Below, piece after piece: positions 26,577-64,000 of a stretch of 64,000 nt of DNA. Position 1 is the first letter of the stretch; the number at the start of each line of letters is the position of its first letter. The notes beneath the pieces were generated by a model that saw only the letters and a program-made list of their open reading frames with translations, searched no databases and was not told where the DNA came from. A program made the position numbers and the translations under genes. Source of the stretch: a virus; IMG/VR virus record IMGVR_UViG_3300045988_081670; one strand, given 5' to 3'.

Positions 26577-26607
26577 ATATTAAAAATTAAAGTTAATTGT
26601 AGCTCTG

Positions 26608-26655
26608 GCAGGATTCGAACCTGCCAAAAATACCATATAGAGCTTATTCCTCACT
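26608..26655 (-). other. tRNA-like minihelix: acceptor-like stem plus T-arm (GGCAGG TTCGAAT CCTGCC), no D-arm or anticodon arm
   Basis: Minus-strand RNA reads AGCTCTA tatggtattttt GGCAGGTTCGAATCCTGCC AGAGCT a. A canonical T-arm, but no full cloverleaf can be drawn. Confidence 0.3.
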
Positions 26656-26801: not shown

Positions 26802-27431
26802 TTAATCACTAAAAGTGATATTATTCATATTGTTACAATAATTAAAATCAATTTCTTTATTATTTACTTTTTTAACTGTTTGCTTTATTACTCCTATACC
26901 AATATCTGGACTTTTAGAGTCAATCCAAAATTCATTATGAGGTAATAGTGGTTTAAGCTTAGTATATTCTATTAAGTTACAATATATTATAGGATATACC
27001 CCAGCCCTCTCACTAAAAAGCTCATTTAATTTTATTAGGTTTTTTATTCTTGATACTTCTGATTCTTCTCCAAAGCCATCCTTTTCATAATCAATACATG
27101 GTAACAAACTTAAAGACATGTCTTCAGTTGCTTTATCATAGTTTTTGTACTGATCTTCGGCAGGGACATCACCTCTAAAAAAATGATAAGCACCTATATA
27201 CAAACTATAATCATATGCTTTATTAAAGTGCTCATACCTTAGAGGGTCTTTATAAGAAGCTCCTTCTGATGCTTTTATAAAAACAAATTTCACATTAGCA
27301 TCTTTAAAGTATTGCCAATCACAATCAGTTATTTTGTTATGGTGTGATATATCTATACCTAATGTTCTAGGTCGATTTGCACAACTTATAAATAGTAAAC
27401 AACAAAGTAATAAATTAATAACTTTTTTCAT
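26802..27431 (-). CDS. GH25-family muramidase (endolysin) with lipoprotein signal peptide
   Basis: N-terminal MKKVINLLLCCLLFISC lipobox. Motifs GIDISHHN, KFVFIKASEGASYKD and GAYHF are typical of GH25 lysozymes. Confidence 0.75.
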   Translation of the reverse strand: MKKVINLLLCCLLFISCANRPRTLGIDISHHNKITDCDWQYFKDANVKFVFIKASEGASYKDPLRYEHFNKAYDYSLYIGAYHFFRGDVPAEDQYKNYDKATEDMSLSLLPCIDYEKDGFGEESEVSRIKNLIKLNELFSERAGVYPIIYCNLIEYTKLKPLLPHNEFWIDSKSPDIGIGVIKQTVKKVNNKEIDFNYCNNMNNITFSD

Positions 27432-27943
27432 CTTATAATACTTCTATCATTATATTTTTTTATATACTAAACTCCACTATTTGAAGGGTCATTTCTATCA
27501 TTTTTACCAGAGGTAAGTTTTCCTCTATTCCAGTATATACTATTAGCATCAGTTTGACTCATAGGAGAACCATCTTTCCATGTATATGAAGGTTTCATGG
27601 TTTGCCTATTATACAATAGTTTTAAGACTGTTGCTTTACCCTACAATGTAGGATTGTTCTTTAAAGAATTTTCATTTATACCATATTTATGATACTAACT
27701 ATTTAATTCTTTCTGCTAAGGGTATATTTTTATCTGTGTAAGACCTCTTGATATTGGAGATACTTTTCCTCTTGTAAGTTTTTGCATTAATTTAAGTCCA
27801 CTATCAGGAATATGTTCTTTTATCCAATATCTTAAACTAGTTCCATTCTTCGTCTCTACTCCAGTTAAATTTACAGCTTGCTTACTTATATTTGCCCAAT
27901 CATTATCCGAAAGATTGTATTTGCGCATCATATTATTACGCAT
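27428..27943 (-). CDS. hypothetical protein, TAG-recoded (4 in-frame TAG). Extends the annotated 75-aa ORF 27716..27943 through its TAG stop
   Basis: The frame continues open for 96 more codons past the TAG at 27716..27718. Further in-frame TAGs sit at 27695, 27641 and 27467. The frame ends at TGA 27428..27430, which overlaps the lysin ATG (ATGA). Confidence 0.7.
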
Positions 27944-28053
27944 ACTATTTACTCCTTGTATAAACTAATGCATGTTATTATTTAGTCTATTAGGATTAAT
28001 AGCAGTAACTGTAACTTCTGGAAGATTATAAGTATTATAATATTTTGTCATTA

Positions 28054-29184
28054 CTAATCCTCCCATCCTCTAGGTGTTCCAGCATCTCTCATAGAAGTAA
28101 TTCCAAATTTTTGACCATTATTACTTCCTAATACTTCATCTAGTAATTCATTATGAATTTTACCGTGTATATTATGTGTAACTCTCCAGTTTTTACCATC
28201 CCAATAGGCATAGCCAACATGTGTAGCTGGAGTTCCTGTGTTCTCCTTTATAGCACTATTATAAAAATCTATCATGTGGGGAGATGTTTTATAATACATA
28301 TTAACTGGATATACGTGATTTTTACGCATCTGTAATTGGTCCAGATTATTTTTAAAGTTGTCTGCTGCTTGATAATGGATATTACGTATTGCCTATAGTG
28401 AATCATTATGATTATAACCGGCCATGTTAGGAGTTAAATTAACACCATCATAACCATTAACAAAATCTTTATAACGTCTTCCCATTTGATAAGCATCTCC
28501 TCCTGCATTAATCCCCATACCTCGTAATTGAGTATTAACGTAAGTTGCACATTCTGGAGTTAAATTACCTAAACGATCGACGGGTTTTTCTGGTATCGTT
28601 AAACCTTTTAATGCTTCTTCTGGAACTCCCTAGGTTGCTAACAATCTTTTAACTGCAATTTCTTCCTATGGAGACGCTTTCTTTTTTGGATAAATAGTCT
28701 AAGCAATTAATCCAGATGCTCCTAGTACTCCAATACCTCCAAGCACTCCTAATCTTTTATTCCTAATGCTCTTTGCCGTATTAGTTATAAAAGGCTTCAT
28801 TGCTTCCTACCTAACCTTTAGAAGGGCTAATTTATTTTCATCCCCTCCAAATTCTCTAGTACCACTTTTGTAAACCTTGGTAGCTTTATCAGGGTTCTCC
28901 TACATCCACTTAAGTTCAGCCTTAGAAGCTGCACTCCTCATGGCTCTTGCATCCCTGATAGCCTATTTCTTTCCTTCGAGATTCGCATCTCTCATTTTCT
29001 AGGTAGGTCTCCAACTACTCTTCTATTGCAATATTTTCTATTTTGCAAGCTTGTTTAATTTCTTTTCAGCTGCAGCTTCTCCTGTGAAAATTCTTCTTAA
29101 TTCATTAGATGCTAACTTAGCCTTATTTACTAACTTACCAAACTAGAGAATTGCTCCTCTCTGTGCTTTATTGATTTGTGTCAT
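28054..29184 (-). CDS. hypothetical virion or late protein, TAG-recoded (11 in-frame TAG, no internal TAA/TGA). The C-terminal 91 aa are the annotated ORF 28054..28329
   Basis: Hand translation from the ATG at 29184 to TAG 28054: MTQINKAQRGAIL*FGKLVNKAKLASNELRRIFTGEAAAEKKLNKLAK*KILQ*KSSWRPT*KMRDANLEGKK*AIRDARAM... continues into ...LQMRKNHVYPVNMYYKTSPH. Confidence 0.75.
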
Positions 29185-29250
29185 TTTTTTTTTCTTTATT
29201 AATATCCGTACTACATTTTTCTCTGATAAATAGAAAACAAACTATTTGGG

Positions 29251-30204
29251 TCATACTGTTGTGCCCAATTTGAAATAGTCCTATTGAAAGCATCCTGGGT
29301 TTGCTGTCCCCCACTTACCATCAGCATTTATTCCAAGTTTCTCTTGAAGTTGCTTGACAGCTTCTGGGCTAGTGTAACCAGCTTTAGCAGCACGATAATC
29401 GAACACACTGTCATAGCCGCTATTATGAGCTTCCATAGTGTCATCAGCCATACCTATAATTTGTCCAGTTTGCTTATCATATATATAACCATTACTGCCT
29501 TGTAGATACTGATCTGGAGTTAGCCAATTTGTTCCGTCGTAGTAATTAGTATTCCCATACCTATCTATTCCGAATCCTTGCTGTTGATTTTCATACTAAC
29601 CAGTTTCCTGATTCCACTCCTGCCAACCATTGTTTGGGTTATACCTATATTGCTATTGAGTCTCCTCTACAGCACTAGGTTGTTTAGAATTTCTTGGAAT
29701 AACTAGATAAGCTCCAGTACCAAGACCACCTACAAGTCCAGTAGCTTTAAGAGTTCTTTTAATACCCCTATTTCTAACCTATCTTAGAGCATCATTCGTA
29801 ACCTGTCTCTTAGTATTATTGAAAGCTTCCTAGGCTTCTCTACTTTTCTATGATGCAGTTATTGCATTTCTTTCAGCTTCATTTGTTTTTCTCGCAGCAT
29901 CATTTACTCTCTTCACATTTCTTTTACTATTAGGCTACTTCCAATTTTTAGTACTGTCTAATAATTTACTTTCTGCTTGCTAAGCTTCTTTATACCTCTA
30001 AGCTGCAAGATTGTGGCTCATTTCAGCCCCTTTCTAACTGTTTCTTGCAGCAGTTAACTCTGGAGAAGCTTGCCTAATTTTAACTACAGCTCTTTCACCT
30101 CCTCCAATTCGTCTCATCCAATTTCCAAAATAATCTGGGATTACCTAAGCATTGCTTTTTAACCAGTTTAGTCCTTCGCCTATGTATTGTGCTCTCTTAC
30201 TCAT
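29251..30204 (-). CDS. hypothetical Gln/Asn-rich protein, TAG-recoded (12 in-frame TAG)
   Basis: 317 codons open from the ATG at 30204 to TGA 29251 with TAG treated as sense: MSKRAQYIGEGLNWLKSNA*VIPDYFGNW... ending ...*QYRYNPNNGWQEWNQETG*YENQQQGFGIDRYGNTNYYDG. No ORF of 60 aa or more under the standard code. Confidence 0.7.
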
Positions 30205-30206
30205 AT

Positions 30207-31481
30207 TTAATTATTGTTAGATAAATTTATCATATAACTGCTATGTGCATAAGGGTATAGTGCCATAGCTGGATCTGAAGCCATAAGTCCATGAAACGCA
30301 GCCTGTCCTGCACTTACAAATCTACTACCAATTCCTTCCGCTCCTCCTAATCTCTTAGGGGCTAATGCCTTTCTTGCAGAGTTAAGTGCACTTCCAGCCT
30401 AGTAAAGGTTAGCAGCTCCTGGTGTATGAGACATCATAGGTCTCCAATTGTTTTTTAATGTAGTTTTTACACCATCTCGCATCATTCCAGAGGCTCCTGA
30501 TCTAAGTCTAGAGACTCCTCCCTTCATTCCTTTAGTTCCGAGGAGAGCCATAGCAAAATTAGCTTCATCATTGAAATTCTTTCTTTGTTGCTCATCTAGT
30601 CCAGTCCAGGCAAAATTCTTATCAGCAAATCCCTTATTTCTGGGATCATCTGGTAGTATTCCTTTCTCTCCTGGAGCTAAGAAACTTCTGATGGAGTTAA
30701 TATCCTTACCTAGATCTAAATATTGTCCTAGCTTGCCAGCTTCTCTCTCAACCTTCTAAGGAAGTAAAAGTTGTAGTGCAGTTCCAATAGTTCCTCCTAG
30801 AATAGCATTTCCAGTTCTGGAAACGTCTCCGAGAGTATCATTGAATCGCGCCCAACCACCTGTATTTCGTTTCGGTTCTAACACACTCTGGGGAACATTA
30901 TCATACATTCCACTTCTTCTAGCATATCCTTTTTTCCAAATATCAGAAATTGACTTAAAGGAATCAACAAAGTTTTCCACAGCACTATCCCAGTTACCGT
31001 CCCAAGCACCTTTCTTGAAAGGATTTAGATCACTCCAACTAAATTCATCAGGATCCTCAGCAGAAGTCTATGATTTCTGTCGTGCTCTATAAGCCTGCAT
31101 AGCTTTATTCTTTGTATCTTGATTTAGATAGGTATCTTTATTATTGAAAGGATTTCTCTGTGTATAGCCAGTTGCTGTCTTTCTAGCTCCTGCTGCCTTT
31201 GCATTTTCCTCTATTCTAGAAGCTGCTTCATCCCAAGTAGCAGTTCTTCCTTCTCTAGAAGATTTAACATCATTGAAACGCCAGCGTCCATTCTAGAATA
31301 TGTTTCCATTTCTAGTATTCATGGAGACTCTATTTGCATAATCTTTACCATATTTACTGGCTAAATATCTCCAGGCAGACCCAGTTATAGCCTACCCTTT
31401 CTAGGCAATCTTGTTGCCATTTACATCTCGGTAATATCCATCTTTACCGAGCCACAATTTACTCATATTAAAATCAGCCAT
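30207..31481 (-). CDS. hypothetical Gly-rich protein, TAG-recoded (6 in-frame TAG). Contains the annotated 74-aa ORF 30756..30980
   Basis: 424 codons open from the ATG at 31481 to TAA 30207: MADFNMSKLWLGKDGYYRDVNGNKIA*KG*AITGSAWRY... reading through TAG 30756..30758 into ...QKVEREAGKLGQYLDLGKDINSIR.... Confidence 0.7.
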
Positions 31482-31519
31482 TTTCTTCTTTTTTTTTTTA
31501 TGTTTACAGGAACAGGTAG

Positions 31520-31595
31520 TACCTCCTAGTGGATTCGAACCAACAGTTTCACTAATATAGACTTTGTTAAACTTCTACCACTGATATAAGGAGGT
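31520..31595 (-). tRNA. candidate amber-suppressor tRNA (anticodon CTA), non-canonical features
   Basis: 76 nt: ACCTCCT TA TATCAGTGGTAGAAGTTT AACAAA GTCTATA TTAGT GAAACT GTTGG TTCGAAT CCACT AGGAGGT A. Perfect 7-bp acceptor, D-loop AGTGGTAGA, canonical T-arm. The best anticodon helix puts CTA at positions 34-36 with U33. An alternative fold gives GTC with A33. It lies 38 nt upstream of the recoded gene block. Confidence 0.45.
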
Positions 31596-31775: not shown

Positions 31776-32777
31776 TTACTTAATAGTAACTATTGCTACA
31801 CGACCACTAGTAGTGTCAGTAACACCAGTTCCAATACAATTCTCTACGATTACACCATTTCCAGTTAAGAATTTGGAAACAGCTTCTGCACGTTTCTCCG
31901 ACAACTTCTGATTGTAATTAGAGGAACCTTCTGGAGATGCAGAACCAATAATGCTTACCTTAGAACCAGATGGAATCTTAGACAATTTAGACATAGCGGT
32001 TCCAGTAAGTTTTGCAGAATTTTGTGCAAAGAAAATCACTGTGTTACCAACTGTATTAGTAACAACTTCGGTCTTAACGACTTCCTTTATAATTTCCGTA
32101 GGTTTCTTTGCTAAATCCTTCTTAAGAGAATTAATTTCATTGTTCATTGATGTAATATCATACGTCTTAAAACTTCTTGTACCATTAGAAGTCTTAAAGT
32201 GGTATACCCATCCAATTAAGACACCAAGCTGAGCATAATTCTTATTGAACTCTACATGACCTGTCTTGTTTAGATTCCAGTATACTGCAGGATTAACTAT
32301 AATTGAGTGAGCCTTCTCCTTACCTAGATTGAATGACAATACCGCTCCAGTTTTAGAGGTAATATAGTTACAGTGTCCTGTCCAACTATGCAGCCAGCCA
32401 ATACCAGTCTCAGTGCTTACTTCAAACCTCCGAGGGGTTCCATTATATCCGCACAGCAGGTTAGAGAAGTTAATAACTCCATTCAATCCAGTATTAATAG
32501 ACCTTACTACAGTAGAAGCACTACCATAGTGATTATCGCCAAAGGAGGCAAGTCCTTCAACGTTAAACCCAAATACAGGAGTAAGGTTCTTCTGCAACTT
32601 AATACCAGCAACTCCATTTACAGGAAATACTGAGTTAAAGTCTAGAGGAGTAGTTACTCCACCTACAACACTAATAGAAGTGTTATCAAGGATTTTAGAT
32701 TCTTCATACGCTGTTTGCGCATAGGTAAAACTACACAGAGTAAACAGCAAACTCATGATGAAAATAAATTTCTTCAT
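31776..32777 (-). CDS. OmpA-family outer-membrane protein (signal peptide, beta-barrel region, C-terminal OmpA-like peptidoglycan-binding domain)
   Basis: N-terminal MKKFIFIMSLLFTLCSFTYAQ signal peptide. C-terminus NSAKLTG...IIGSASPEGSSNYNQKLSEKRAEAV matches OmpA_C motifs. Confidence 0.7.
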   Translation of the reverse strand: MKKFIFIMSLLFTLCSFTYAQTAYEESKILDNTSISVVGGVTTPLDFNSVFPVNGVAGIKLQKNLTPVFGFNVEGLASFGDNHYGSASTVVRSINTGLNGVINFSNLLCGYNGTPRRFEVSTETGIGWLHSWTGHCNYITSKTGAVLSFNLGKEKAHSIIVNPAVYWNLNKTGHVEFNKNYAQLGVLIGWVYHFKTSNGTRSFKTYDITSMNNEINSLKKDLAKKPTEIIKEVVKTEVVTNTVGNTVIFFAQNSAKLTGTAMSKLSKIPSGSKVSIIGSASPEGSSNYNQKLSEKRAEAVSKFLTGNGVIVENCIGTGVTDTTSGRVAIVTIK

Positions 32778-32909: not shown

Positions 32910-32954
32910 AAGGTTGAGAGGATTTGAACCTCTATAGAGCCTTATCTCCAACCT
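32910..32954 (-). other. tRNA-like minihelix (acceptor AGGTTGG/TCAACCT plus T-arm GAGG TTCAAAT CCTC)
   Basis: A canonical T-arm flanked by a 7-bp complementary acceptor pair, with only about 14 nt between them. No D-arm or anticodon arm. Confidence 0.3.
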
Positions 32955-33418: not shown

Positions 33419-33436
33419 TACTTTTAATTTTTATTG

Positions 33437-33510
33437 TGCTCTCATCCAGATTCAAACTGGAAACCCACAGCTTAGGAGGCTGTTGCTCTATTCAATTGAG
33501 CTATGGGAGC
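33437..33510 (-). tRNA. tRNA-Arg (anticodon CCT)
   Basis: GCTCCCA TA GCTCAATTGAATAGAGC A ACAGC CTCCTAA GCTGT GGGTT TCCAG TTTGAAT CTGGA TGAGAGC A. The overlapping plus ORF 33069..33539 is spurious. Confidence 0.7.
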
Positions 33511-50214: not shown

Positions 50215-50300
50215 ATTTGTAGCTCTAGCGAGAGTCGAACTCGCACGCCCATTACTGGACAACAGATTTTCCTGCCACACTTGCTTTTACACAAGCAAAC
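50215..50300 (-). other. tRNA-like element (canonical T-arm GCGAG TTCGACT CTCGC, no acceptor partner; upstream hairpin with 8-nt loop)
   Basis: 3' end reads ...GGGCGTGCGAGTTCGACTCTCGCTAGAGCTACA. No complementary 5' acceptor strand found within 100 nt. Confidence 0.25.
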
Positions 50301-51204
50301 TAACATTGACTTCCACTTCCAAAGCACCCCGACTTATTTTCGTGCACCAATTATAAATTGTGAAGCCACCCTCACAGGTATTAAGAAGTTTTCATTTATA
50401 TATTCACTCGACGGGTAAAGTATTAGAATATATAAGTTAGTCTTTGTGGTCTGGACTATTTTATTACCATATTAAAAATCTTGCAAGATATAGCTTCATT
50501 TTCTCCTTCTCATATTGCAAGCTAACAGAGTTTAAGATTCTCTTGCTACGCAACTTAGATTCCACTATAATTTCTAACTTAGGTATCTCCTCTATAGTCT
50601 CTACACATTTATGAACTATAAAACTTTGTATTTAAACTTATTAGTATTTTTTGCCTAGTCTCGGAAAACACTAATCATTTTACAGTATTTCAATTTAGCT
50701 CGTCATCACCAAAATTTATGTCACCATAAATAAGGTTTCTGTCGAATTAGGGAGATTCTACTCTTATAATTTCTTATAAGGCACTCAAATTTTCAAGTCT
50801 GTCGGGTCTACCATTCCCCCATAGAGCCGTCCTTTTTAAAGGAGCTTGTAGGCAGTTTCTATAAACTTATCAATTAAATCATCTCTATAGAAACAATCTA
50901 CACCATAATCAAATTGTACTTTTCTAGCTACACGATATTTAGAATCAATGTAGTTAAATACCTTTTGACCTTCTCTCCAATTGTTTTGAAAAGCCTTAAT
51001 ACCATTAAGGACATCTTCTCTAAATTCTTCGTATGTCATAATTATTATTTTTAAAATGGTCCTGTACGATTTGAGCATTGTTAAGAGGCTTGACAGGAAA
51101 GAAAAAACCTGGCTTCAGGCGGTTTTATCCCTACTTCACTATATCCCAGTAATACCTTAAGAGTACTGATATAGTCCCGGTGTCAAGCTTCAGATTTTAT
51201 TAGT

Positions 51205-51960: not shown

Positions 51961-52079
51961 TGTTTAATCTCTTCTTTATCGTGTAGAGACTTAGGAACAC
52001 GTGTAGCCAGAAAGCTATCCACACACGATTCTCACGAACAGTAGTACTACTATTTGATATACGTTTATTTATCACCCGG

Positions 52080-52165
52080 TGTTCCCTATGGGATTCGAAC
52101 CCATGACCCCGAATTTAAAAGATTCGTGCTCTCTAGCCTTACGGAACCAACTGAGCTAAGGGAAC
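52080..52165 (-). tRNA. tRNA-Lys (anticodon TTT) with a roughly 10-nt insertion in the D-loop
   Basis: GTTCCCT TA GCTCAGTTGGTT[CCGTAAGGCT]AGAGAGC A CGAAT CTTTTAA ATTCG GGGTC ATGGG TTCGAAT CCCAT AGGGAAC. Confidence 0.55.
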
Positions 52166-53116: not shown

Positions 53117-53683
53117 ATAAGCACATCTCTCGATGTGCATGCCTTAGTATATTCCACCTAAGTGTTTAGAGACCTTGCAAGTTGGAATTAATCCATACAC
53201 ACAGTGTCAACCGAAGCAGTATCTGCATTAATAGTATCTACCTGAGCAGTATCAGTACTGTCATTATCAGCGTTAGCTGAGTTAGTAGAATTTCCACATG
53301 AAGCAAACATTGCTCCAAACATCAATACAGATGCAAAAATTAACTTTTTCATTTTCATAAAATTTAATTAAACATTTAAGTTATCTATGCTATTCTAAAT
53401 ATATATTTAATGTTGGCGGTGGCAAAAGGATTCGAACCTTAAATCTCTTGCGCCATGCAAGTATTTTACGAGTAAACGATAATCTTTTTATTCTCAATGT
53501 ACTAATAATACAAAAATAATACAATATTATATGCTTGCTTTTATATTATATTTACATTACTTCCCATAGATATTTATTGCGATTACCATTATAATAACTC
53601 CACCTATTTTAAACTATACCACCAAAGGATGCTATACTATTCTCACGAACCATGTAGCGCAAAAGTTTTAATTAAACTATAAG

Positions 53684-55726: not shown

Positions 55727-57360
55727 ATAGGTTTTTATTAACTTCTTGTTCTCTCTTGTAAAATTGTATAGCAAAGATAGTATCTATGAAGAAAATTGCA
55801 AAATCAAATTCTGTTAAAATTTGTAAATTGATCTAAGTCAAGTTTTCATCATAAATACTATCTTAGTCTATAAAAGATTATATGTCAAAGACATATCTTT
55901 TGGACACTGACTACAACATCCATGCCATTCTCTCTTAAGAGTTTGATTGCTGCTTGTATATCAGGTCTTTTAAGTATGTCTTTGTGTCTTTTCTTATCAC
56001 GCCATTTATTGTGATATGCATTCACTTTCTTCTGGTATTCCTTATAAATCTCATTAAGCTTATGAAAATGAATAGGCTTATTAGGATTATTAAAGCAATA
56101 CAAGTCATCTCCAACTTGTTTTACAAGCCCAGAGTTGGAAAATGCAGTCCAGAATACTGGATTTGATGGTATTCCACAACTCTTAAACCCTTCTCGGATT
56201 GTATCACTTGTAAAAGGAGTTTTAGCCAGCTGATGGCGCAACGTATTTAATCCTACGATATGCGCCTCAGCGTCAAACTTCTTAGCCATTGATCTCCGCA
56301 TTATAGAGGTTTCGCATTTCTTCTACTAAGTCTGAGCACCAATCTATAGTGCGACCGTGATACTTAGAGAATAAATCCACGCCAAAGAAAGTTCTAGGCT
56401 GGATGTCGTGAATCTGGTTGTTCTTGTCAATTGTAATCTCCAATTCAAATGGGAGATTTACAACAGCCTTCTGCTGATTCTGACCAACCTGTGCATCTTT
56501 GTTTGTAGTGATAATAGCTTTAAAATTCTTTAACATAGAATTTTACCTCCCTAGCGAGGATTTATTAAGTCTAGGAAAAGTTACAGTCTTTGACTGTCAG
56601 TCAGTATAATTTTTCAAGCGGAGCTACTATTATTCACTCAAAACTATACAAAACTAGAAATACTTGTGAGAGTCATAGGTAGCTCTCAAGTTCACCTTTT
56701 TATTTAATTGAGAGGTGTAACTCAATTCTTTAGGAGCCTACTTTTTACACATCTTCTCAAAGACTTCTCTGAGAAGTTTGTTAGCATCCTCTTTGGTAAG
56801 ATGATTCCTCGTTTCTTTCATCTCCCTTTCAATTTCAGAAGATTTTGAGAGCATCTGTCCCATTTGTATGCTAATAGTAGCGTACCCTGCTAAAACTGAT
56901 GCAATAACCATTCTCTGCACTTCCTCAGGGAGCTCTTTAACACTCTCTTTAAAGCTACGGGTATCGCAGACAAGACCCTTTGCCACGGCTGAAGTTGCCT
57001 TATCTACAACCTCAGAACTGTACATTTTGTTTTCTTTTTCCATTTTTTTTTTCTTTAGTTAACTATACCAAATTTCTGGAATGTTTATCATTTTATTATA
57101 TGATTACAATTACTTCTATTTCAACTGCTGAGATTTGAATGTAAGATGTTCTAATTGCTGCAAGAAGTTTGAGCGAAGCTTTAAATCCCTGATGGTCTTC
57201 TATTTTTACTGCAGACTTTGCAACCTCGGTTACAAATTCTATTGCCTCTTCCTTAGAAAGAGTGCCGACTATTGATTCTCCGTTTGAGAAGAACTCAATA
57301 CCATTTGAACATTCAAAAATCTTTTTCATTTCTTTTCGTTTTTATTATTAATAACTGGAG

Positions 57361-57431
57361 ACTATCTGGGAGTCGAACCCAGGTGACTTAGCCAAGGCAT
57401 AGTATCCTAACCGTTAGATGAATAGTCTCTT
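57361..57431 (-). other. tRNA-like element with perfect acceptor stem (AGACTAT/ATAGTCT), D-loop-like segment and canonical T-arm (CTGGG TTCGACT CCCAG) but no foldable anticodon arm
   Basis: The middle segment ACTATGCCTTGGCTAAGTCACC cannot form a 5-bp stem with a 7-nt loop in any register. Confidence 0.35.
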
Positions 57432-63137: not shown

Positions 63138-63593
63138 TTAGTCCTTGAAATCAAGGATTACCAAAGACGATGCAAATCTGCGTCCGTCCTTGGAGATAGC
63201 AACATAGGGTTGTCGTGAAACGGCAACTTTCTTATCCTTGCAGCCATCAACGATAGCCTTGAGAATTTCGCCGTTGGACTTACCCGACATTCTGCTGATA
63301 GTGTCCTTGACATAGTGGTTGAAGGTGCCGTTAGGCTCGAGGATTGAACCCTCTGCACTAACTTTCGCTTTGATAACCATACTAAGGAACATATCTCCGA
63401 TGGAGGTAATAAAAACGGGGGAAGTCGGTGCGTCAGCACCTACTTTTCCGTCGATTTCTGCCTGCTTGTAGGTAAATCCTGTTACAACAAAAGTAGCCCC
63501 TGGTTGGAAGGGGCTACCTCCCATTGAGATGGTAAAACTCTTGTTAGCAGCCTCAATCTTGTTGTCATCAGCTTTAACAAATCCTGTAAGCAT
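63138..63593 (-). CDS. hypothetical protein
   Basis: 151-aa ORF. A nested ORF 63158..63439 is likely spurious. Confidence 0.45.
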   Translation of the reverse strand: MLTGFVKADDNKIEAANKSFTISMGGSPFQPGATFVVTGFTYKQAEIDGKVGADAPTSPVFITSIGDMFLSMVIKAKVSAEGSILEPNGTFNHYVKDTISRMSGKSNGEILKAIVDGCKDKKVAVSRQPYVAISKDGRRFASSLVILDFKD

Positions 63594-64000
63594 AATATAA
63601 AATGTGTTAGGTCTGCGGTTGCATTAGTGAGCCGCCAAGTTTAGCTTGTTTCCTTGGAAACAAGCAAAGTCATTCGGTAGCTTAACGTCCGACCGAAAAC
63701 GGGACGCTTCGAGGTTACTATTCTTCGCCTCGGACGGCTGATGAAGCCGAATCGAATATTTATATAAATATTCTAAATATTTATAGTTGTCGAGTAACAA
63801 CTGGCTAGGTTTTCCACGAGTACGACCCAGGGGGTCGAACGGAGTGGTGGACTCTCCCATGTATAACATATAAAATTTTTAATTTTTGGACTCTCACATT
63901 TATAACACTTCAAAATTTTAGGATTCCGACAAATAGGGGGGGGGATAAAAAAAAAGCTAACCCAGATTACTCTGGATCAGCTTCAAATGATTCAATTGTT

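Follow-up and report, generated by a model that had tools for sequence, protein, structure and literature searches.

A degenerate tRNA(CUA)-like element ahead of a TAG-recoded phage gene cassette: a probable former amber suppressor in decay

A tRNA-like element with the putative anticodon CTA stands immediately ahead of four genes that are open only when TAG is read as sense, on the same minus strand, in a 64,000-nucleotide stretch of viral DNA (IMG/VR record IMGVR_UViG_3300045988_081670; this whole stretch is called the window below). In the interpretation that we favor, with a probability of about 0.55, the element is a former amber suppressor that is now redundant and is decaying or at best auxiliary, with probably little or no UAG decoding left to it. 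It is tRNA-shaped and, as a tRNA, marginal, and CTA is the reading that ARAGORN prefers. The features at this site are as follows.

31519..31595, minus strand: degenerate element resembling a tRNA(CUA); ARAGORN gives it 77 nt, and counting up to the discriminator A at 31520 gives 76 nt
31558..31560, minus strand: putative anticodon CTA in the ARAGORN structure, within the 7-nt loop G32-U33-CUA-U37-A38
31482..31518, minus strand: conserved spacer from the element to the first recoded gene, made up of CTACCTGTTCCTGTAAAC, an A-run and GAAGAAA

Read on the minus strand from 31595 to 31519, the element has the sequence ACCTCCTTATATCAGTGGTAGAAGTTTAACAAAGTCTATATTAGTGAAACTGTTGGTTCGAATCCACTAGGAGGTAC. 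Its acceptor stem pairs at seven of seven positions (ACCTCCT/AGGAGGT), as the original prediction had it, and the D-loop noted there (AGTGGTAGAA) is also present. The T-arm had been described as canonical, which holds for the T-loop, TTCGAAT, and fails for the T stem, GTTGG/CCACT, where three Watson-Crick pairs are accompanied by one G.T pair and one T.C mismatch and where 3 nt have been deleted. The nucleotides of the tertiary interactions are all there (T8, A14, GG in the D loop and TTCGAAT), the variable region measures 6 nt in the ARAGORN structure, and the anticodon stem forms four of its five pairs, the fifth being an A.A mismatch. ARAGORN returned the predicted anticodon CTA with U33 in front of it (loop G-T-CTA-T-A), and the two reservations that had been attached to the call, a pyrimidine at position 37 and a weak D stem, were justified as well, since position 37 is U and two of the four D-stem pairs are Watson-Crick. 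A purine at position 37, usually a modified A37 beside A36, is near-universal and matters for the efficiency of amber suppressors. The loop offers the U33 and CUA of an amber suppressor, with U instead of a purine at position 37. The predicted placement was likewise confirmed, with 38 nt from the end of the element to the start codon (ATG at 31481) of recoded gene 1 on the same strand. Two other readings of this sequence were set aside: an alternative register giving GTC (Asp), since ARAGORN reports only cta and never GTC, and AGGAGGT as a Shine-Dalgarno sequence sequestered by ACCTCCT, since it is not followed by a start codon and the gene leaders in this region are A-rich and lack such a sequence. 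No Shine-Dalgarno sequence was found in the spacer at 31482..31518.

At its default threshold, ARAGORN called 17 tRNAs in the 64-kb window, all on the minus strand, with no suppressor among them and the element uncalled. When the threshold was lowered to 95% of default (-ps), the element was called as tRNA(cta) of 77 nt and was the sole additional call across the window, so that this check, proposed with the original prediction, yielded cta at the relaxed threshold and no call at the default one. First-order Markov-shuffled 64-kb sequences gave 0.075 calls each at the 95% threshold, and with this chance rate the claim of a minus-strand tRNA-like gene (76/77 nt at 31519/31520-31595) was borne out. 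An Rfam scan of the window at the gathering threshold missed the element, and the Rfam tRNA model RF00005, run on 321 nt around the window copy, gave no match even at E<=10; the same model gives 40-77 bits for the genuine tRNAs of the window. The cloverleaf of the window copy was computed at -1.2 kcal/mol vs -20.0 kcal/mol for the minimum free energy (MFE) fold, an extended hairpin, compared with -7.4 vs -18.9 kcal/mol for the 80-nt form found in relatives and -21.0 vs -22.1 kcal/mol for a canonical suppressor allele. The sequence is not of the Gln type. Compared with the 17 window tRNAs and the canonical suppressors, it reached an identity of 0.54-0.66 vs a mean of 0.61, which is background level, and derivation from another tRNA was rejected for this reason.

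The recoded block to which the element had been tied proved real, with the following genes in and around it.

30207..31481, minus strand: recoded gene 1, 424 aa, 6 in-frame TAG, with homologs in relatives
29251..30204, minus strand: recoded gene 2, 317 aa, 11 in-frame TAG
28051..29184, minus strand: recoded gene 3, 377 aa, 11-12 internal TAG, terminal TAG-TAA
27428..28051, minus strand: recoded gene 4, 207 aa, 5 in-frame TAG, with a 78%-identical homolog in contig L025
26802..27431, minus strand: GH25 muramidase (endolysin), standard code; Pfam Glyco_hydro_25 at 1.7e-19, PHROG endolysin families
31776..32777, minus strand: OmpA-domain gene, standard code; upstream neighbor and anchor for fetching relatives

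The four contiguous minus-strand ORFs (31481-27428) carry about 33 in-frame TAGs overall and open only with TAG as sense; under code 11, the stretch at 27.4-31.5 kb contains no long ORF, and the corresponding genes of relatives behave in the same way. No further gene of the 64-kb window has internal TAGs, and about 9-10 ordinary window genes end in TAG, mostly with a second stop a few codons on. In well-aligned columns across five related genomes, TAG stood opposite CAG in 19 and CAA in 18 of 49 cases, with other residues at 4 or fewer each, which shows that TAG is read as Gln in the recoded block; a reading as Leu was rejected on the same alignment. The GH25 muramidase gene lies directly 3' of the recoded genes, and a flotillin-like gene, like the OmpA-domain gene, lies upstream of them. 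In relatives, the enzyme that follows the cassette is of the YkuD type (YkuD_2). Searches of the four cassette proteins against PHROGs, Pfam and PDB sequences returned nothing or sub-threshold matches: gene 1 had no Pfam or PHROG match, gene 2 has an N-terminal coiled coil, a hydrophobic helix and a weakly PG_binding_1-like, sub-threshold C-terminus, and gene 3 combines a coiled coil and a hydrophobic helix with a variable C-terminal domain. All 98 database homologs of gene 3 had been called with TAG as sense. An AlphaFold model of a homolog of cassette protein P3 reached a pLDDT of 47.9. Among the cassette proteins (window 27428-30204; contigs L001-L004 and L172-L177), the N-terminal coiled-coil and hydrophobic-helix part is shared and the C-terminal domains are swapped; genes 2 and 3 are fused in L003.

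Relatives of the locus were fetched through the upstream gene, a DNA pattern and homologs of gene 3, which gave more than 14 human-gut metagenome contigs, many of them 170-178 kb long. Homologs of the element, for which the original prediction had advised a search, were indeed found in synteny in more than 14 related contigs, with place, orientation and spacing to the cassette fixed wherever the element is present; several of them, however, are damaged rather than intact suppressors. An 80-nt form (L001, L003, L012, L017, L018 and L174) has a perfect T stem, AGTGG/CCACT, with five of five pairs, and is called tRNA(cta) by ARAGORN at default (L001, L003 and L174), while the Rfam tRNA model gave no match to the 80-nt form of L008. 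The window copy equals this form minus 3 nt (CAG), and the deletion, which breaks the T stem, is private to the window and absent from all other contigs. A 91-nt form (L002, L004, L014, L023, L024, L029, L175 and L177) has 11 extra nucleotides after the loop, a 4-bp anticodon stem, GCAA/TTGC (GTAA/TTAT in L024), and the 8-nt loop NNTCTATA (a loop of 8 nt or 6 nt is possible), and its inserted ATAGA is able to pair with the anticodon. Quadruplet decoding by this 8-nt-loop class was rejected, as the ORFs of those genomes are open in the triplet frame, and the 11-nt segment was, on manual inspection, set aside as an archaeal or eukaryote-type intron, since its position after nt 39/40 and its geometry are unlike a bulge-helix-bulge. 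Contig L172 has the 80-nt form with G18T. In L027 and L028, which come from two independent samples, a 58-nt remnant keeps the acceptor stem, D arm and T arm and has no anticodon arm, next to cassette genes with 13, 18, 5 and 5 TAGs; in L025 and L026 the element is absent, next to cassette genes with 8, 6, 5 and 5 TAGs. In more distant relatives without the cassette, the site is either empty or occupied by a normal tRNA-Leu(taa), and descent of the element from the tRNA-Leu(taa) found there in L005 and L006 was rejected because the sequences are unrelated. No close relative among GenBank phages came up in a megablast search with the window, and tblastn gave only a 40% match to phage csAssE-Sib.

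Conservation and damage coexist in this set. All variants that retain an anticodon arm share an unchanged TCTATA (U33-CUA-U37-A38), and the anticodon stem shows pairing-preserving changes, from C-G to T-A in L024 and from G27 to A27 opposite T43 in the 80-nt class. Position 50-64 of the T stem is G-C in L001, G.T in L004 and A-T in L175. In L027, the acceptor stem ACCCTTA/TAAGGGT keeps seven of seven pairs with four pairs differing from those of the window, all compensated, and the T stem keeps five of five with two compensated differences; this covariation evidence comes from about nine distinct sequences, and the intergenic flanks are conserved as much as the element itself. Among the versions compared, damage is greatest in the window copy. 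Judged from these genomes, the element is eroding in relatives while the recoded cassette persists.

Exact 151-aa and 153-aa proteins of the window's upper end were used to find overlapping contigs, which are 90-98% identical in nucleotides to the window at 62.5-64 kb. The original prediction had named a clear tRNA-Sup(CTA) elsewhere in the genome as evidence that would count against it, and one is very probably there: a tRNA(CTA) locus was found past position 64000, about 250-1100 nt beyond it, in six of the six contigs that extend that far.

About 64250-64320 by homology, minus strand: canonical tRNA(CTA) (L043:701-772, L044:351-424, L046:570-644, L179:3041-3112, L182:1767-1841)

Five of the six copies are intact and called by ARAGORN at default (L043, L044, L046, L179 and L182). 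They lie about 250-320 nt beyond the window end in L043, L044, L046 and L182 and about 1.1 kb beyond it, with an extra gene between, in L179, which is collinear with the window tRNA array at 57-51 kb, so that the tRNA(CTA) is linked to the same array. The three alleles scanned scored 53.3 (L043), 62.7 (L044) and 57.1 bits (L046) against the Rfam tRNA model. The canonical alleles have the loops CUCUAAC or CUCUAAA with A37, U1.G72, A73 and a Gln-type D arm resembling that of the window's tRNA-Gln(UUG). A distant IMG/VR relative (L041) has a 72-nt tRNA(cta) upstream of its homolog of the window gene at 63138-63593. No canonical tRNA(CTA) lies inside the 64-kb window, and the four closest IMG/VR relatives gave no match by flank pattern or by two protein anchors and were not among the generic-pattern matches listed. 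From the overlapping contigs, we infer that the window's own genome probably carries a canonical tRNA(CTA). As observations on the slot itself, three unrelated tRNA(CUA) sequences sit between identical flanks in near-identical contigs, which looks like cassette-like allelic replacement, and in L183 (1-880) about 840 nt with a 230-aa ORF precede the 3' half of an L046-type tRNA(CTA) and look like an insertion right after the anticodon, possibly an intron with an endonuclease gene.

Two further tRNA-like pieces, both reduced to the upper half of a tRNA, occupy spacers near the cassette.

26600..26644, minus strand: tRNA-like minihelix of 45 nt, reduced to acceptor stem and T arm, in the spacer that follows the endolysin gene
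32910..32954, minus strand: second tRNA-like minihelix of 45 nt, ahead of the OmpA-like gene and also conserved in L001-L004 and L175

A homolog of the minihelix at 26600-26644, L008:5139-5183, scored 19.8 bits against the Rfam tRNA model, and the L175 homolog of this minihelix has a changed T stem. Several other RNA features were recorded in the window. A degenerate tRNA-like sequence of 70 nt at 57359-57428 (minus strand) has good acceptor and T stems and an abnormal loop and is called by ARAGORN at 85% only. Rfam matched a group I intron between ORF fragments at 36954-37403 (minus strand; 50.8 bits vs a threshold of 50) and an abiF RNA within the tRNA array region at 51060-51097 (minus strand; 50.1 bits, threshold 37). 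At 50219-50828 (minus strand), ARAGORN with introns allowed gave a tRNA-Leu(taa) with a 524-nt intron, where Rfam found no group I intron. The window has a 75-nt tRNA-Arg(cct) at 33436-33510, and its place is taken in relatives by a tRNA-Arg(tct) of 85 nt whose extra arm is long (L002:3370-3454, L003:4581-4665 and L029:6622-6706). The 70-nt tRNA-Lys(ttt) at 52078-52147 (minus strand), with its anticodon at position 29, scores lower against Rfam (39.7 bits) than any other tRNA of the array and may have a reduced D arm.

The interpretation of the element as a redundant former suppressor draws together the relatives and the canonical locus. The original prediction had made the element the suppressor that the adjoining genes need, which is not supported, as TAG-rich cassettes persist beside an element with no anticodon arm or beside no element at all. 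Redundancy is indicated both by these heavily recoded cassettes, whose adjoining element cannot decode or is missing, and by the proper Gln-type suppressor linked to the phage's tRNA array, and decay is indicated by the lesions that close relatives have acquired independently, of at least four kinds. We infer that the element does not decode UAG. Counting against decay are the invariant TCTATA, the stem changes that preserve pairing, the 80-nt form that passes ARAGORN at default, the fixed position, strand and spacing, and the canonical tRNA being seen neither in the window itself nor, among the matches listed, in the long contigs of the closest relatives; moreover, phage tRNAs are often odd but functional.

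The course of events that we propose is as follows. A tRNA-derived gene with a CUA anticodon would once have worked as an amber suppressor and was possibly carried along with the recoded cassette. Today, the four TAG genes would be decoded mainly by the canonical Gln-like tRNA(CUA), presumably encoded at the head of the tRNA region about 33 kb upstream of the cassette, and the window copy, with its U37, its mismatched D, anticodon and T stems and its private deletion, would contribute little or nothing to UAG decoding. The top half of the element, comprising acceptor stem and T arm, may still be a substrate that RNase P and the 3' tRNA-processing enzymes recognize and cut, and cutting at the element would free the cassette mRNA with an A-rich leader. 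Such a role in processing, as a tRNA-like signal where the cassette transcript begins, is speculative. It is put forward in preference to a pure relic because pairing in the top half has been maintained, and the two acceptor-T-arm minihelices in nearby spacers are in line with it.

Four other explanations were weighed against this interpretation. The element could instead be a functioning, non-canonical amber suppressor dedicated to the cassette, co-transcribed with it, excised from its 5' leader and charged with Gln or another amino acid, giving local UAG decoding besides, or in place of, the canonical tRNA(CUA). We hold this to be unlikely while giving it real weight, for the cta calls (at default for the 80-nt form, relaxed for the window copy), the invariant anticodon-loop string, the anticodon- and T-stem changes that keep pairing and the fixed site 38 nt ahead of the first recoded gene on its strand are what such a suppressor should show. 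The literature also lends it plausibility, as published surveys expect undetected non-canonical suppressor tRNAs (10.1101/2021.08.26.457843) and a suppressor-bearing code-change module has been described immediately upstream of a recoded lysis cassette (10.1101/2021.08.26.457843; PMC12386605). The structure speaks against it: U37, two of four D-stem pairs, the A.A mismatch in the anticodon stem and the broken T stem of the window copy; no Rfam tRNA score for either the window copy or the 80-nt form; a cloverleaf about 11-19 kcal/mol above the MFE; and, elsewhere, an 8-nt (or 6-nt) loop in the 91-nt class with the anticodon pairing to the inserted ATAGA, and G18T in L172. Moreover, the TAG-richest cassettes adjoin an element that lacks the anticodon arm (L027) or no element (L025), and the sequence does not look like tRNA-Gln and is no closer than background to any tRNA tested. 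Rather doubtful, in our estimate, is the broader proposal that the 77/80-, 91- and 58-nt forms and the minihelices make up a functional tRNA-like class tied to recoded lysis-type cassettes. It comes in two versions, an unconventional U37 decoder of UAG overlooked by standard tRNA finders and a tRNA-like punctuation whose processing gates the translatability of the recoded mRNA.

At the other end of the range lies a dead relic, a functionless tRNA pseudogene at a hot spot for tRNA genes whose likeness among contigs reflects recent common descent. The 3-nt deletion, the 11-nt indel, G18T and the lost anticodon arm in the window and its relatives are compatible with such a fate, as are the equal conservation of the flanking intergenic DNA, the further degenerate tRNA-like pieces (57359-57428, 26600-26644, 32910-32954 and 53423-53481) and the tRNA-Leu(taa) at the same site in more distant relatives. 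What makes it improbable to us is that the acceptor and T stems of the deeply diverged L027 remnant still pair perfectly with both partners replaced at six pairs, and that the series G-C, G.T and A-T in the T stem argues for selection on pairing. A chance resemblance to tRNA, to which the absence of calls by ARAGORN at default and by Rfam might point, has next to no likelihood: random sequence gives few calls at the relaxed threshold (the 0.075 per 64 kb above), better-formed homologs in relatives are called at the ARAGORN default, and the acceptor and T stems co-vary, so that this explanation is effectively refuted. The redundant former suppressor is the reading that we retain.

Several points of wider use follow from the locus. 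A CTA-bearing tRNA-like sequence beside recoded genes is not proof of a suppressor, and here the better candidate is located some 250 nt past the window end. Without local use of code 15, gene callers will break up the 4-kb cassette. Within the 64 kb, TAG-to-Gln recoding is limited to four genes by the endolysin, which fits the published idea of late or lytic gating. A suppressor-type tRNA is here seen decaying in differing ways among close relatives, and the canonical suppressor locus appears to have been swapped among at least three unrelated tRNA(CUA) sequences. Small recoded ORFan cassettes that were perhaps missed are a suggested reason why some Zeta crAss-like phages keep a seemingly unused tRNA-Sup(CTA).

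Phage amber suppressor tRNA(CUA) together with TAG-to-Gln recoding (genetic code 15) is known from crAss-like and other gut phages (10.1101/2021.08.26.457843; PMC9523058; PMC12386605), in which TAG-to-Gln recoding is biased to lysis or late genes and suppressor tRNAs occur near lysis cassettes (10.1101/2021.08.26.457843). Like these code-15 phages, the present one is a low-GC human-gut phage (about 170-178 kb in its relatives) with a tRNA array, standard-code replication genes, a block by the lysin gene with in-frame TAG that stands for Gln, and a Gln-like tRNA(CUA) present in the lineage. Unlike them, it recodes, in the window, only four ORFan genes that take up about 4 kb within a replication and tRNA module, and it has another tRNA-like gene with CUA, the present element, which standard tRNA models do not accept. 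Zeta crAss-like phages are 155-190 kb long, with tRNA blocks and CTA or TCA suppressors (PMC12386605), and the size of the relatives, the gut origin, a GC content of 35.3%, NrdD, primase, helicase and tRNA-metabolism genes fit this group. Size, GC content and tRNA(CTA) also resemble a Bacteroides-associated Zeta clade listed with a CTA suppressor but 'no suppression' (PMC12386605, Table 1). A known TGA-recoded system likewise places a suppressor-type tRNA immediately 5' of recoded genes by a lysin on the same strand, whereas here the codon is TAG, no aminoacyl-tRNA synthetase or release factor lies nearby, and the tRNA is degenerate and dispensable in relatives. The element further resembles tRNA pseudogenes and minihelices that are cut by RNase P and 3' enzymes, in that the top half is kept while the D and anticodon parts decay, and, like processed tRNA minihelices, several such pieces lie in intergenic spacers along one transcription direction, a likeness in structure. 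Recoding in crAss-type phages is already known, and the suppressor-like element described here is an addition to known stop-codon recoding.
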